Assembly (NCBI GenBank): GCA_964016885.1
Contig: OZ024741.1
Location: 108,314,001-108,378,000, forward strand
DNA length: 64,000 nucleotides
Reading direction: 5' to 3'
From: Eledone cirrhosa
Taxonomy: Eukaryota
The notes beneath the pieces were generated by a model. It worked only from the letters and a program-made list of their open reading frames with translations, had not been told where the DNA came from and did not search any database. Below, in pieces: positions 56,522 through 60,146 of this stretch (positions within the stretch are counted from its first letter, which is position 1; every line of letters begins with the position of its first letter). A program made the translations under genes and the position numbers.

Positions 56522-56615
56522 ACCCCGACAGCTGAGCTCAAGCCGTTTCGACGGCTAATTCTGGACTAAATGAACATTTATCCTGGTATTTAAATAGCCG
56601 ATCTTCTCAAGGGGT
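56522..56615 (-). ncRNA. Type I hammerhead ribozyme (U3:A8) in 3' pLTR of family A
   Basis: Same sequence as 60053-60146. Confidence 0.85.
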
Positions 56616-57713
56616 AATTCCATATATGGTCAAAGTGATTGTCAAAAATCAGTAGTAATTCTGTGGTTGCAAATTAGTAGGGGAGATGGTGGCTAAACCT
56701 GCCAGTAGGAGAAAGAGGGGAGGGGGTGGAGTAGACCCAATCAAGCGTTGGTAGTGCCAGCTACAGCTGGGCATGAGGTCAAAGAAGATACAGGGGAGGG
56801 GGAGGGGGAGGAAGTCGGAACGGTAGGTAGAACAATGGGGGGTAAAAATAGGAAAGAAAAAATACTGAGAGTGAAGAAAAGCAAAAAAGTGTAAAGAAAA
56901 AATTAAATTCTACGACCTAGGTGTCAGGCTATTGTTAGGCGAGAATAAAATAAAGAAAGAAAGAAAGAAGTAAATAAATAAATAAATAAATAAATAAGGA
57001 AATAAGTAAAAGAACTAGGTGGGACGAATTAGGCAAGGACCCTTTTAAGAGGTATAAGTACGTAAATGATACGGTGACTGGTCAACAAAAGGGGCCAAAA
57101 TACTAAAGAGACTACCACGAAGTAAACAATAAAGGTTTCCATCCCGGGCCAGCGACGACCCAGTGCAGCAAAGTGAACTTGTACGACATAATAATTCTGA
57201 GTCCCGGGAAAAATATATACTAATGCTAACTCTAAAAGATCTAAAACAAGCTACATGAAAGTTCGTACGAAATAAAGGTAGAATACGGAGAAATAAGTTC
57301 AGAATCCACCCCGCCCAGAAGAAAAGCGAAGCAAGAAATACTGAAACGAAAAAATAAGGCATAAGTGCCACTAAGAAATATAGAGGGCACAGAGAATAGT
57401 GGGAGCGGTCGGAAAAGGGGGGCAAGTATCCGGGGTCTAAGCCAACTGCTATAAAGGGCGGAGTCCGCCAAATCTATCAAAGACTAGGGGAGGGGGGAGT
57501 GGGGGTACTAAGGCTACATGGGGCCAAAGGGCAGCCTCGGGTGGGCGAGAAAAGACGCCGACAAAGGAGAAGAGCTGGGGTAGAAGGACAAAGGAGAGAG
57601 GGGGGAAGGAAATAAAGGATGCGATAAAAGAATACAAAGAAGATCTTACGTCTTCCTTGGCAAGCAGGGGTTACCCATTGCAAAATCGGCAACTGGGGTG
57701 TTATAGCCCTAGT

Positions 57714-59867
57714 CTACCCCCCCGGGTCATTATGGGGTTTGAGGGCGAGGTAAGTCCTACGCAATCTATGTTTACATGCAGTAACCAGTTCATCTTTCTT
57801 GTTTAGGAGTTGGTCCGTCGAAAACAGCATTTGTAAAGTTTCCTCCGAGCATAAATTGCACGGACGGCGTCCTCCCGTGTAAGAATTGGCTCTGGACAGT
57901 AATCTCCAAGTGAGATCATAGGTGATGTTGTTGTCCTTGAGGTCCCATATGTGGCCCGAAAGTGTAGTGGCGTGACGCCGGGCCGGGTTTCGGAAGGTAT
58001 GTCTATGTTGGTATAGCCGGGTCTTGAAGTCACATGCGGTAAGTCCTATATAGGCTTTGTTGGAGGTATCCGTCCTCACGTTGCACTGGTAGATCACATT
58101 ACGGTCTCTGCATCTATTGTCGAGTGGGCAAATAGATCTATCCGGGCAGTTACACCTCCTGGTCGGTTCTCCACTGCTATTTAGGTTATTTCTGCCATCG
58201 GGGTTGAGTTTTTTGTTGTTAGAGGAGACGATGTTTTGTGCGAAGTTTGGTGTAGTGCTGTAAGAGAGTTTGATGGTATTTTTGTTAATTATGTTGTGGT
58301 AGCGGTGTTGTAATGGGAAGTGTTTTTCAATGAGCCTAAAGAATAGTTTCCCGATGGGAGTAGTCACCTCTGCGTTGTGGGGAGGATTGAACCATGTTAC
58401 ATTGCGTGAGCGGCGGTGTCTCCTGCTGGTTCCGCTAATGGGATCTGGACAGTAGGATATTTCCTCCCGGAAACCACTCCGCTTGAGGGCCTGGTTGTAA
58501 TAAGGCGCATGTTCATCGAATATCCGCTCATTAGCTGACAAACGGGATATGCGGAGGGAGATGTTTTTGACCAGGTTGTTTGTGATGTTCCTAGGATGGT
58601 TTGATCGGCGGTGGATGTAGTGCAGATTGTCATTAGGTTTCCTGTATGGGTAGTACAGGTCGTTTTCGAGGTCGAGGGTTACGTCCAGGAAGTTTACTCG
58701 GGTCAGGGACGTTTGTAGGGTTATTTTAAATCCCCAGTCGCGGAAGAATCTGATTAATTGTTTCCGGACCCGATCTGTACTACTGGGGTTGTACCCTTTA
58801 AGGGTAAGGAGCCCATCATCACGGTACAATCCACCACCGAATGCAGGAAACATATCAGTGAGTTTGGCTATTAGGAATAATCCTATAAGATCAGTGACCT
58901 CCGCCGAATCCGTGGCGCCCATGCTGACGTCGAAGGGTGAGTCGGGAGCTCTTTTTATCCATTTAGAGTCGTCAAAGAGTAAGACTGTCTTCCTGGCGTG
59001 GAGGATGATTTTTCTTTCCTGGTCGGTGATGGGCACGAGTGTTTCGGCGAAGTCCAAGGCGGCAGTAAGTAGCGGTAAGGTGATTGAAGCATAGTAGCTC
59101 TCTATGTCGAACTGTATGAATTTAGTTTCTCGTTTATCCTCCATATTGCTGAACCAGGAGATTACTTCCTGGGTGTTGATCCATAGGCTAAGTCGGGTGT
59201 GTTGCTTGACTTTTGGTATCACGCGGTCTAGGATTTTTTTGCTGATTCTCCCTATGTCGGACTTCGTTGGGTTAATAAGCCTGATGGAGGGTTTACGGTC
59301 AAAATCGGATTTATGGTCCTTCAGTGTGAAGTATGGTGTCCGTGGGTCTAGAGGTTCCGTGCGGTCGGCGACCCCGAGGCTGGAGGTGATTTGTTGTCCA
59401 TCTCGATTTATGTCCTCGATGCAAGAGTGGTTGGCCTTTTTATAGGTGGAGTTTAGGCTGCTCCTGATCAGTGTGTGGTATCTGTCAGGGTTGACAAAGT
59501 ATAGGTTCCCAGTTTTATCCGAATGCACCATGATGTCATTTGTGTTATCATACTCTGTTAAGTTGCTACGGAGTTTTTGTAGGAATCGGTTGTGTCTGGG
59601 TTTAAATTTAATATTCTTGACCAGTTGGAAGAGGTCATTCTCGAAGGGTGCGAGCAAGGGGTTCAGGGGCGGAGATTTGTAGGTAATAAATCCGAATCTC
59701 TCCTTGGTGCCGAAGTCTTGGTTGTCGCAATATCTGTCATAGAAAAAAGTTCTCCATCTAAGTCTTTTCGCAAATAGATCAATTTTTTGCGTGAGCATCC
59801 GAAGGTAAAGTTTTTTCGGTGGGATTGGGATGTTCTTGGTAGAGAAGTCAATGTTGTGTTTTCGCAT
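57714..59867 (-). CDS. Intact Penelope-like element (Naiad-like) polyprotein: reverse transcriptase + Cys motif + C-terminal GIY-YIG endonuclease, 717 aa from first ATG
   Basis: Uninterrupted ORF; first ATG at 59867 (MRKHNIDFSTKNIPIP). Motifs: HSDKTGNLY, FIQFDIESYY, VSMGATDS, LYRDDGL, FLDVTL, SNHP, WFNPP, KLSYS, CNC-x5-CPL-x3-C, NVIYQC...AYIGLT...FKTRLYQH, CNLCSEE. The SxKNIP/DKT/CxC pattern resembles Naiad-type PLEs; clade is inferred. Confidence 0.95.
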   Translation of the reverse strand: MRKHNIDFSTKNIPIPPKKLYLRMLTQKIDLFAKRLRWRTFFYDRYCDNQDFGTKERFGFITYKSPPLNPLLAPFENDLFQLVKNIKFKPRHNRFLQKLRSNLTEYDNTNDIMVHSDKTGNLYFVNPDRYHTLIRSSLNSTYKKANHSCIEDINRDGQQITSSLGVADRTEPLDPRTPYFTLKDHKSDFDRKPSIRLINPTKSDIGRISKKILDRVIPKVKQHTRLSLWINTQEVISWFSNMEDKRETKFIQFDIESYYASITLPLLTAALDFAETLVPITDQERKIILHARKTVLLFDDSKWIKRAPDSPFDVSMGATDSAEVTDLIGLFLIAKLTDMFPAFGGGLYRDDGLLTLKGYNPSSTDRVRKQLIRFFRDWGFKITLQTSLTRVNFLDVTLDLENDLYYPYRKPNDNLHYIHRRSNHPRNITNNLVKNISLRISRLSANERIFDEHAPYYNQALKRSGFREEISYCPDPISGTSRRHRRSRNVTWFNPPHNAEVTTPIGKLFFRLIEKHFPLQHRYHNIINKNTIKLSYSTTPNFAQNIVSSNNKKLNPDGRNNLNSSGEPTRRCNCPDRSICPLDNRCRDRNVIYQCNVRTDTSNKAYIGLTACDFKTRLYQHRHTFRNPARRHATTLSGHIWDLKDNNITYDLTWRLLSRANSYTGGRRPCNLCSEETLQMLFSTDQLLNKKDELVTACKHRLRRTYLALKPHNDPGG

Positions 59868-60052
59868 GGTGCGGGTGAAATGAATTGAGCTTAGCGGAAA
59901 AGTCTGGATACGGCGTGGTAGGGTCGGAAAGTGCTCTACTACGGGAGTAGGAGCTAGATAACGAAGGAAATGTGGTAAGGAACCAGGTGGACCATAACGC
60001 ACCAAAGTACTCAATACTTGAGGTAGTAGAGTGGGTAATAGGAACCAGTAAG

Positions 60053-60146
60053 ACCCCGACAGCTGAGCTCAAGCCGTTTCGACGGCTAATTCTGGACTAA
60101 ATGAACATTTATCCTGGTATTTAAATAGCCGATCTTCTCAAGGGGT
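60053..60146 (-). ncRNA. Type I hammerhead ribozyme (U3:A8 variant, expanded stem II) in 5' pLTR of family A
   Basis: Minus strand: ACCCC-TTGAGAA-GA(T)CGGCTA...TAGCCGTC-GAAA-CGGCT-tgagctc-AGCTG-TC-GGGGT. All three helices pair; GUC cleavage triplet. Confidence 0.85.

Follow-up and report, generated by a model that had tools for sequence, protein, structure and literature searches.

The window, i.e. the whole stretch of 64,000 nt of Eledone cirrhosa DNA that was analysed, contains an intact and young Penelope-like element (PLE), which is possibly active. We consider it rather probable that this element of the Hydra clade employs two RNAs: a capped mRNA starting in loop II of its 5' hammerhead ribozyme, and a seamless template of 3531 nt, most simply a circle. 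Start site, cap, cutting and circle are all read from footprints in DNA.

Structure of the element

Positions within the unit are numbered from the predicted cut, with u+1 at window position 60057 and u0 at 60058 (C of GUC). For the 5' copy u equals 60058 minus the position. The features are as follows.

56427..60298, minus strand: main arm, 3872 nt (1.1 units), with 5' pLTR, ORF, 3' UTR, 3' pLTR and 80-nt tail; ends at u+100
60298..61830, plus strand: inverted partner arm, running from u2019 to u+20 of the following unit; differs from the main arm at 3 sites
60298: arm junction, overlap of 1 nt between main and inverted arms
57714..59867, minus strand: ORF, 717 aa, telomerase-like reverse transcriptase and C-terminal GIY-YIG-type endonuclease motifs, Hydra clade
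60053..60146, minus strand: 5' hammerhead, type I, U3-A8, predicted cut between 60058 and 60057
56522..56615, minus strand: 3' hammerhead, identical to the 5' one, predicted cut between 56527 and 56526
61722..61815, plus strand: third hammerhead, identical, in the inverted arm, predicted cut between 61810 and 61811
60120..60127, minus strand: TATA-like TATTTAAA, top of stem II, u-69..-62; repeated at 56596-56589
60095..60104, minus strand: putative transcription start in loop II, main A 60098 (u-40), minor 60102-60101 (u-44/-43); repeats 56567, 61770
59954..59995, minus strand: upstream ORF, 13 codons, within the 230-nt leader; ATG retained in most copies
60038, minus strand: putative reverse-transcription start A, u+20, ends in TAT; repeats 56507, 61830
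59958, minus strand: putative reverse-transcription start B, u+100, ends in TAT; repeat 56427
56527..57713, minus strand: 3' UTR, 1187 nt, with a second cDNA stop hot spot near 57509 (u2549)
56396..56426: (TA)n target, left part
61831..61851: (TA)n target, right part

A preliminary description had reported identical hammerheads 3531 nt apart around the ORF. They were found again within a direct repeat of 341 nt (59958-60298 and 56427-56767, period 3531) without mismatch, and both cuts on the minus strand followed from core and fold at the positions predicted there. Its leader of ~190 nt, 717-aa ORF and 3' UTR of ~1.2 kb agree with the measured 190 nt from 5' cut to ATG, 717 stop-free codons and 1187 nt from stop to 3' cut. 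The pLTRs, described as identical, indeed show 0/341 mismatches, and the inverted arm (60298-61830 against 58039-56507), for which about three differences had been given, shows 3 in 1533 nt. The other copies of the element are 99-100% alike; a very recent insertion is thus a reasonable reading, to which no date is attached. The potential activity claimed for the element is in line with its intact ORF and young copies.

Both ends of the insertion, u+100 at 56427 and u+20 at 61830, lie past the predicted cut. Hence, the integrated DNA was not copied from a linear cut-to-cut monomer. These end positions and the third hammerhead had been left out of the preliminary description.

Tandem arrays of the unit occur in the genome with a period of 3528-3546. 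GT-AG introns were rejected as explanation of three internal deletions. Highly fragmented read contigs from four DNA-type runs on 55560-58000, possibly from the assembly's own sample, showed loose ends at 56571 (u-44) and 56507, echoing the genome.

Coding capacity and classification

The QFDI, MG, YRDD and FLDV motifs of the reverse transcriptase were kept across 102 sequences. For the protein model (pLDDT 92.7) the best Foldseek match was TERT 3du5 (E 2.5e-8), and the best VIA-align match, on a par with other reverse transcriptases, was telomerase 6zdp (Z 16.1, rmsd 4.3, 292 aligned). Pfam and PDB sequence searches of the protein gave nothing useful. At the ORF's C-terminal end, YIG (606-608) and downstream R, H, E and N positions are conserved, without a Pfam match there. 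The endonuclease fold was absent from the whole-protein searches with Foldseek and VIA-align, which barely probe this part.

A single ORF with telomerase-like reverse transcriptase, a partial tandem of pLTRs, an inverted 5' arm and a tail at one end identify a PLE, probably of the EN+ group. The motifs of the Hydra clade (RWK, DKT, CxCx5C linker, CxxC and CxH, no CCHH) were found as RWR 37, DKT 117, CNCPDRSIC 572, CNLC 670 and CKH 698. Furthermore, the hammerhead lies in the pLTR, the target is (TA)n and published Hydra proteins are similar to the 717-aa product in a comparison by eye. The tendency of the clade to less than 3 kb, which is not diagnostic, is exceeded by the 3531-nt unit. Naiad identity was ruled out by the C-terminal endonuclease motifs and the lack of an in-frame TGA. 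Assignment to the retrozymes, which are non-coding and non-autonomous, does not apply to a unit with an intact ORF.

Hammerhead ribozymes

On the minus strand the hammerhead consists of stem I (ACCCC/GGGGU), the core UUGAGAA in U3-A8 form, stem II with a loop of 37 nt, GAAAC, a near-palindromic stem III and GUC. Core nucleotides and the order of the three stems are those of type I. This structure is the minimum-energy fold, with pair probabilities of 0.85-0.98 in stem I. An Rfam search gave no match at the gathering score, and the folding energy was not beyond that of shuffles (z -0.68). Hence, the hammerhead is called from core letters and pairing, not from stability. Among 60 distinct variants position 7 was G or T and one pair of stem III was G-U or G-C; the rest of the core was kept.

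Arm ends and transcription start

The ends of 169 arms were located. At u-33..-45, i.e. 33-45 nt ahead of the cut and in loop II, 121 ends were found, 8 lay beyond and 9 (~5%) fell on the predicted cut (u-2..+2), including both arms of two insertions. The peak at u-40 is 29 nt downstream of TATTTAAA, in the context TTAGTC (TCAGTC in older copies). We take TATTTAAA to be a TATA box from the usual core-promoter spacing; the 29-nt spacing and the initiator are consensus features, which may not hold for this animal. Genome-wide, exact matches numbered 36,341 for the word u-33..-11 compared to 2,412 for the word u-72..-50.

In 3,496 arms, u-41 is a purine instead of the element's T or C. The first 100 of them had 87 G and 13 A, and none of 30 inspected arms was a sequence variant. 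For ends at u-45 a G was present in 9 of 100 only. Of the 36 G at 43 loci inspected serially, 15 were possibly the last letter of the partner arm, and the unambiguous extra letters (14 G, 6 A) were not significant alone (p 0.12). In seven insertions the extra G stands on both arms and could thus not be supplied by the partner arm; the G share against the expectation from partner ends gave p 1e-21. Starts at u-40 continued into the ORF in 9 of 22 short-bodied arms. The extra G may be regarded as the mark of a capped transcript lacking half of the ribozyme, which suggests a likely capped mRNA with its start in loop II of the 5' hammerhead. It is the ORF-bearing fragments that point to a full-length capped mRNA, since no full-length arm with a capped-type end was found. 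A second promoter at u2549 found no support, as the ends there are without extra G.

The preliminary description had proposed an uncapped, possibly circular mRNA with cap-independent translation; in this model the cut-to-cut monomer, linear or circular, is both mRNA and template. Such a monomer would explain the exact unit period and the 5 of 75 ORF-bearing arms that begin at u0..+3, and in fungal viruses and plant cells hammerhead cutting is able to promote translation without a cap (PMC13725137, available part). However, most templates begin at u-40 with an extra G, and these ends, which far outnumber those at the cut, extend into the ORF. Cap-independent translation is no longer needed, and a linear monomer would require a jump at each pass, yet the cut site is free of scars. 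As a whole this proposal is very improbable. The 3531-nt unit, the footprints of cutting and the circle as simplest full-length template remain from it, but not the role of the monomer as mRNA.

An enzyme stalling on RNA structure might also pile up ends at u-40. In this case the ribozyme would be mostly idle and long copies would derive from uncut read-through RNA, initiated in a unit farther upstream or at a promoter of the host. The cut site is crossed uncut by most cDNAs, uncut RNA was the main in vitro substrate of the anole element (PMC11167929, available part), and the hot spot at u2549 demonstrates that stalls do happen. But a stall would not place G on both arms, and it should halt full-length arms too, as seen in 0 of 39. 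Read-through alone would presumably be unable to renew copies of more than one unit without ever longer parents. A mostly idle ribozyme is highly doubtful.

Two-armed insertions

Pairing of arms was recorded for sampled loci in the first 55 Mb of one contig (C1). In 64 of 65 clear pairs the insertion was a head-to-head pair of cDNAs in (TA)n, one from u+20 (A) and the other from u+100 (B). The 99 anchored ends comprised 64 that were clearly paired with the opposite type, one B-B and no A-A. The remaining ends were three A-B by eye, two unclassifiable, one direct and 28 solo. Both ends were visible in 14 of 17 long insertions, all 14 being A-B. Genome-wide 7,349 A and 23,288 B ends were counted, word counts being influenced by subfamily differences.

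Variants found in no other compared insertion were common to both arms in 6 of 13 two-armed cases. In the window, u2904 is C in both arms and T in the other insertions covering it. Since both arms can carry the extra G, priming of two cDNAs on sense RNA is favoured over self-priming on antisense RNA. The short inverted copies (minis) were rejected as a self-copying MITE family because their junctions vary from locus to locus.

Full-length copies

With full-length arms, 39 passed u-45, none ended at u-33..-45 and two ended at the cut; compared to short-bodied arms, the difference was significant (Fisher p 6e-10). The cut site was perfect in 210 of 227 long arms, similar to the minis (240 of 266). 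Full-length copies are thus likely derived from a seamless RNA template, of which the 3531-nt circle remains the simplest form, as u-40 is crossed seamlessly. In four-unit arrays variants alternate every second unit. This pattern fits later DNA duplication, so the arrays are no proof of rolling-circle copying and were set aside.

Seamless passage is compatible with a circle and with homology-guided strand transfer alike. In the latter case promoter and twin priming would be the same, but the full-length copies would arise from linear capped RNA without a circle. The segment u-40..0, or a longer one where the 3' ribozyme has not been cut, would be present at both ends like the retroviral R, and a 'strong-stop' cDNA would anneal to the 3' copy at each pass. 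Such a terminal repeat exists by construction, a scarless outcome is expected too and jumps of the enzyme off the u-40 end do occur: template switches that left u-40 or u+1 landed on RNA ends at u213-930. In an older sequence context, all three seamless copies of insertion L344 carry G at u-41, as homology-guided transfer could leave. In the young context, in contrast, G or A at u-41 was found in no seamless copy and C in five, although G prevails among the purine-marked ends. Transfer would have to succeed almost perfectly to account for the full-length arms, and jumps without homology mostly end at the second arrival. PLEs are not known to possess an RNase H domain, which counts against this course as well. 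We regard it as realistic, though clearly less probable than a circular template.

The circular template could come from a composite ribozyme. Folded alone, the capped 5' end has GAAA in a hairpin and forms no hammerhead; co-folded with the cut 3' end, a composite hammerhead was predicted at -17.8 kcal/mol. This fold and one locus (L386) may hint at such a structure. A cut end joined to the u-40 start was found only once genome-wide.

Discussion

In the proposed life cycle, a TATA-initiator promoter would produce in loop II a capped RNA without the 5' strand of stem I, the UUGAGAA core and the 5' strand of stem II. Missing these parts, the 5' ribozyme would be unable to fold in cis, and the cap would be retained for ordinary translation. 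The enzyme, probably a dimer, would cleave both strands of (TA)n, and from each target strand one cDNA would be primed, the two using the pair of internal UAU sites on a single RNA. If that RNA is linear and capped, the cDNAs would run off the 5' end after ~60 and ~140 nt, leaving thousands of inverted minis of 200 bp, or now and then jump to the 3' end of an RNA. On a template lacking ends at u-40 and u+1 they would go round and restore pLTR and promoter. The weakest step is the origin of the circle, which may be formed by two cuts in read-through RNA or by the composite hammerhead of cut 3' end and capped leader. A two-stage cycle on one RNA was also considered. Here, the capped mRNA with half a hammerhead would be translated and then cut by the 3' hammerhead; the leftover half would capture the leader, remove the capped 40 nt and ligate a circle of exactly 3531 nt, to be copied by a dimeric enzyme from two fixed sites onto both target strands, restoring pLTR and promoter. 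This complete sequence of events is unlikely.

The function of hammerheads in PLEs and the rebuilding of the pLTR are named as open questions in the available parts of PMC8557442 and PMC11167929. The present family is young and has left tens of thousands of fossil cDNA ends. Two template classes are cleanly separable, likely capped RNAs with ribozyme-internal start leading to minis and likely seamless templates leading to full-length copies. Exact positions can be named for the predicted cap (u-40), cut (u0) and reverse-transcription starts (u+20, u+100), and the intact ORF suits the published in vitro assay. Thus, the role of the ribozyme in PLEs is directly testable with this element.

The available text of Craig et al. 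(2021; PMC8557442) describes the Hydra clade as PLEs with C-terminal EN, generally <3 kb. Shared features are RW(K/R), DKT, CxCx5C, CxxC and CxH, a single ORF near 700 aa, the pLTR hammerhead, the (TA)n target, the partial tandem with inverted arm and the tail at one end. In contrast, the element described here has a 3531-nt unit with 1.2-kb 3' UTR, a U3-A8 core and a putative ribozyme-internal start. Its loop II comprises 37 nt compared to 4-9 nt in four Hydra-1 rows, and its tail 80 nt compared to 30-40.

For Poseidon of Anolis (Frangieh et al. 2024; PMC11167929, available part) reverse transcription was reported to start at two internal sites downstream of the hammerhead, which define the tail, along with a predicted dimer and in vitro cutting and extension of both target strands; cutting by the ribozyme was not required in vitro. 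For Poseidon, neither a difference in start site between the strands nor homology to the target was seen, whereas a near-strict choice of one start per arm, with UAU matching (TA)n, was found here. Ends at the cut, none in the available Poseidon data, make up ~5% of arms.

Tandem type I hammerheads ~3 kb apart flanking an ORF, the U3-A8 variant, a palindromic stem III and small opposite-strand pairs are known from PLEs (Cervera and de la Pena 2014; PMC4209133). The circle is likewise published: these authors proposed it, formed from the monomer, as template for more-than-unit copies. The available part of that paper holds neither a promoter or capped start inside the ribozyme nor a genomic test of template ends, and a ribozyme-internal start was not found in the literature searched.

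Promoter and start in the pLTR were described for other PLEs (Schostak et al. 2008, PMC2377424; Arkhipova et al. 2013, PMC3846280; available parts), with TATA and an initiator-like motif noted for a rotifer element. The start of Penelope lies 46 nt ahead of an intron, the end of which marks helix I; this start is thus upstream of the complete ribozyme and not inside it as suggested here. Head-to-head repeats were attributed to self-priming on antisense RNA (PMC3846280), whereas the extra G favours twin-primed cDNAs of sense RNA.

The metazoan non-LTR retrozymes (bioRxiv 10.64898/2026.07.22.740005, available part) resemble the element in tandem type I hammerheads, proposed circular intermediates and origin from PLE pLTRs. 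The element differs in being autonomous and coding, and of the ribozyme its abundant minis retain no more than the 3' half. RNA started upstream of the ribozyme is untranslatable in a plant retrozyme (PMC12029980, available part), which provides a reason for a start inside it. If true, the promoter within the ribozyme would let the mRNA escape its own cutting and solve the conflict of the plant retrozyme.

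Structure of the element

The Penelope-like element lies on the - strand of the window, with (TA)n runs at either side. Positions are counted from u+1, the first base past the predicted 5' cut (window 60057; u0 = 60058). An exact direct repeat of 341 nt recurs with a period of 3531, and the inverted arm of 1533 nt shows 3 mismatches and contains a third hammerhead copy. The hammerhead, of type I, combines the U3-A8 form of the core with a loop II of 37 nt and a stem III that is nearly palindromic. This is the minimum-energy fold, with a stability not above that of shuffled sequences (z -0.68), and the Rfam search gave no match for it. 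Across 60 distinct variants of the same length, the core was retained, position 7 was variable and one stem III pair switched between G-U and G-C.

For the 717-aa ORF protein, scoring of 7,996 candidates gave 2,049 relatives; identity to the best of them is about 40% over the full length. The protein carries the Hydra-clade motifs as defined in the available sections of Craig et al. 2021 (PMC8557442); its likeness to published Hydra proteins was judged by eye. The structure model is confident, its matches being telomerase and further reverse transcriptases, and the putative C-terminal endonuclease is recognised through its motif only. The element is a new Hydra-clade family of already known architecture.

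Further features were noted in the window:
18146-20769, older copy of the family, 82-91% alike, also two-armed (long arm to the u+100 end, short arm u-101..+20)
10216-10181 (-), hammerhead-like motif unrelated to the family
2302-2266 (-), hammerhead-like motif unrelated to the family
32289-32327 (+), hammerhead-like motif unrelated to the family
about 55803-55745 (-), another unrelated hammerhead-like motif, spotted by eye
48830-55000 and 62500-64000, extended tandem arrays with 12-nt or mixed short periods; the open frames in them are repeat artefacts

Elsewhere in the genome, a tandem array with a 299-nt unit (L385) has a 20-nt deletion in loop II and retains the full hammerhead; it is a retrozyme-like derivative of the family. 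Parts of the element were also present in a second organism (run X5, organism B), where one piece matches window 56599-56782 with zero substitutions.

Two probable starts of reverse transcription

In the 3-Gb genome the 31-mer spanning the cut had 10,317 exact matches and the ORF-start word 307, and a word in the ribozyme 3' half had 36,341 compared with 2,412 for one in the 5' half. For the two cDNA starts, u+20 (A end) and u+100 (B end; the script value of 103 counts 3 flanking TA bases in the reference), 7,349 and 23,288 matches were obtained. As subfamily differences blur such ratios, individual loci were sampled, namely 60 B and 40 A ends from the contig C1 listings, skipping loci already in the set. 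One end was discarded for its missing anchor.

A clear inverted partner of the opposite type was found for 64 of the 99 anchored ends, with one B-B and no A-A pair. The others comprised three A-B pairs recognised by eye (diverged subfamily), two with an internal partner end, one direct and 28 solo. Both ends were visible in 14 of 17 long insertions examined, and all 14, including that of the window, were A-B. Both types of end terminate in TAT, which could base-pair with a primer formed by nicking of (TA)n. Furthermore, variants common to both arms and missing from other insertions were detected in 6 of 13 insertions. Judged from sequence, the pairing and the common variants are the footprint of two presumably primed cDNAs from one RNA or one source. 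At L238-L240 (contig C1, near 91.49 Mb), a 55-nt ORF piece (u1714-1771) is repeated in tandem about 60 times where the two arms join.

The template's 5' terminus

Among 169 arm ends, 121 lay at u-33..-45, eight farther upstream and nine at u-2..+2. The limit falls within loop II, and three motifs are located near it:
TATTTAAA, u-69, upstream of the arm-end limit
TCATTT, A at u-44, loop II
TTAGTC (older copies: TCAGTC), A at u-40, loop II

In 3,496 arms u-41 is a purine in place of the T or C of the element. The first 100 arms listed had 87 G and 13 A; in the comparison at u-45 only 9 of 100 were G. Inspection of 30 such u-41 arms explained none as a sequence variant. The origin of the extra G was ambiguous in 9/23 and 6/13 (two inspected sets), and it was present on both arms of seven insertions, chosen from the listing as adjacent pairs. 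An extra G ending full cDNAs is a known mark of cap copying, as in LINEs. RNA starting at u-40 is without the UUGAGAA core and the 5' strands of stems I and II, and its GAAA is folded into a hairpin in the predicted fold. A capped RNA, with a leader of 230 nt and an upstream ORF of 13 codons, is the likely transcript of the element.

Letters +18..+29 from a u-44 start (window 60081-60070, -) read CCGTCGAAACGG, overlap the GAAAC of the ribozyme and resemble the Drosophila consensus of the motif-ten core-promoter element.

The preliminary description proposed an uncapped, possibly circular 3531-nt monomer as mRNA. The uncapped mRNA was not borne out; the unit and the possible circle hold up as template, the circle having been proposed already in 2014 by Cervera and de la Pena (PMC4209133). 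Cap-independent translation following hammerhead cutting is reported for fungal viruses and plant cells (PMC13725137) and could conceivably occur here too.

Templates of ORF-bearing arms

Merging of arrays and removal of a duplicate, a deletion array and five loci sampled before reduced the first 100 ORF starts listed to 75 insertions. Nine of 22 partial-ORF arms start at u-36..-43 and three at u+1..+3, and in many a short u-40 or u+1 piece comes first in copying order. Here the enzyme appears to have copied past the 5' end of its RNA and then jumped to an RNA end lying at u205-930; a few added letters are usual. Thus, capped-type RNAs appear to extend into the ORF, and cut RNAs probably occur as well. 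Recurrent landings at u213-214, u317-318 and u915-930 (loci L063, L064, L086, L348, L364, L368, L369, L382, L383) suggest preferred RNA 3' ends within the ORF.

Of 53 long arms, 39 extended beyond u-45, none stopped at u-33..-45, two stopped at the cut, one in between and 11 at earlier positions (p 6e-10). An unscarred cut site was seen in 210/227 long arms compared with 240/266 short two-armed insertions, overlapping loci possibly being counted twice. A cut end joined to a u-40 start occurred only once genome-wide. Passage and unscarred cut therefore require either templates without a u-40 or u+1 end or near-perfect homology-guided transfer. A second hot spot of arm ends near window 57509 (u2549; about nine loci at u2541-2551) lies immediately 5' of a C-rich tract and shows no extra G; possibly, copying stops after the G-rich cDNA stretch.

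We give a circle about an even chance of being the full-length template: copies are seamless, young seamless copies retain no G, and arms span 1.1 to at least 2.5 units. Homology-guided transfer, for which the terminal repeat is present and jumps do happen, is rather unlikely as the source of full-length copies; three seamless copies at L344 with G at u-41 speak for it. Uncut read-through RNA is a still less probable source. Four-unit arrays were set aside as deciding evidence because variants recur in every other unit of them, a pattern that DNA duplication would leave. With regard to the circle, the cut 3' end is predicted to co-fold with the capped leader into a composite hammerhead, through which, speculatively, capped mRNA could be converted into a circle. 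Locus L386 holds one copy of the u-40..0 piece.

Comparison with known elements

The literature searched described no start site within a PLE hammerhead. The arrangement is a variant, characterised by this likely start, a near-strict rule of one start per arm and the clean separation of templates into capped-type and seamless ones. That the tail of PLEs is restricted to one end has long been known. For the anole element, two internal starts were shown in vitro, and in the available portion of that study (PMC11167929) the strands did not differ in start, whereas here each arm has, almost strictly, its own.
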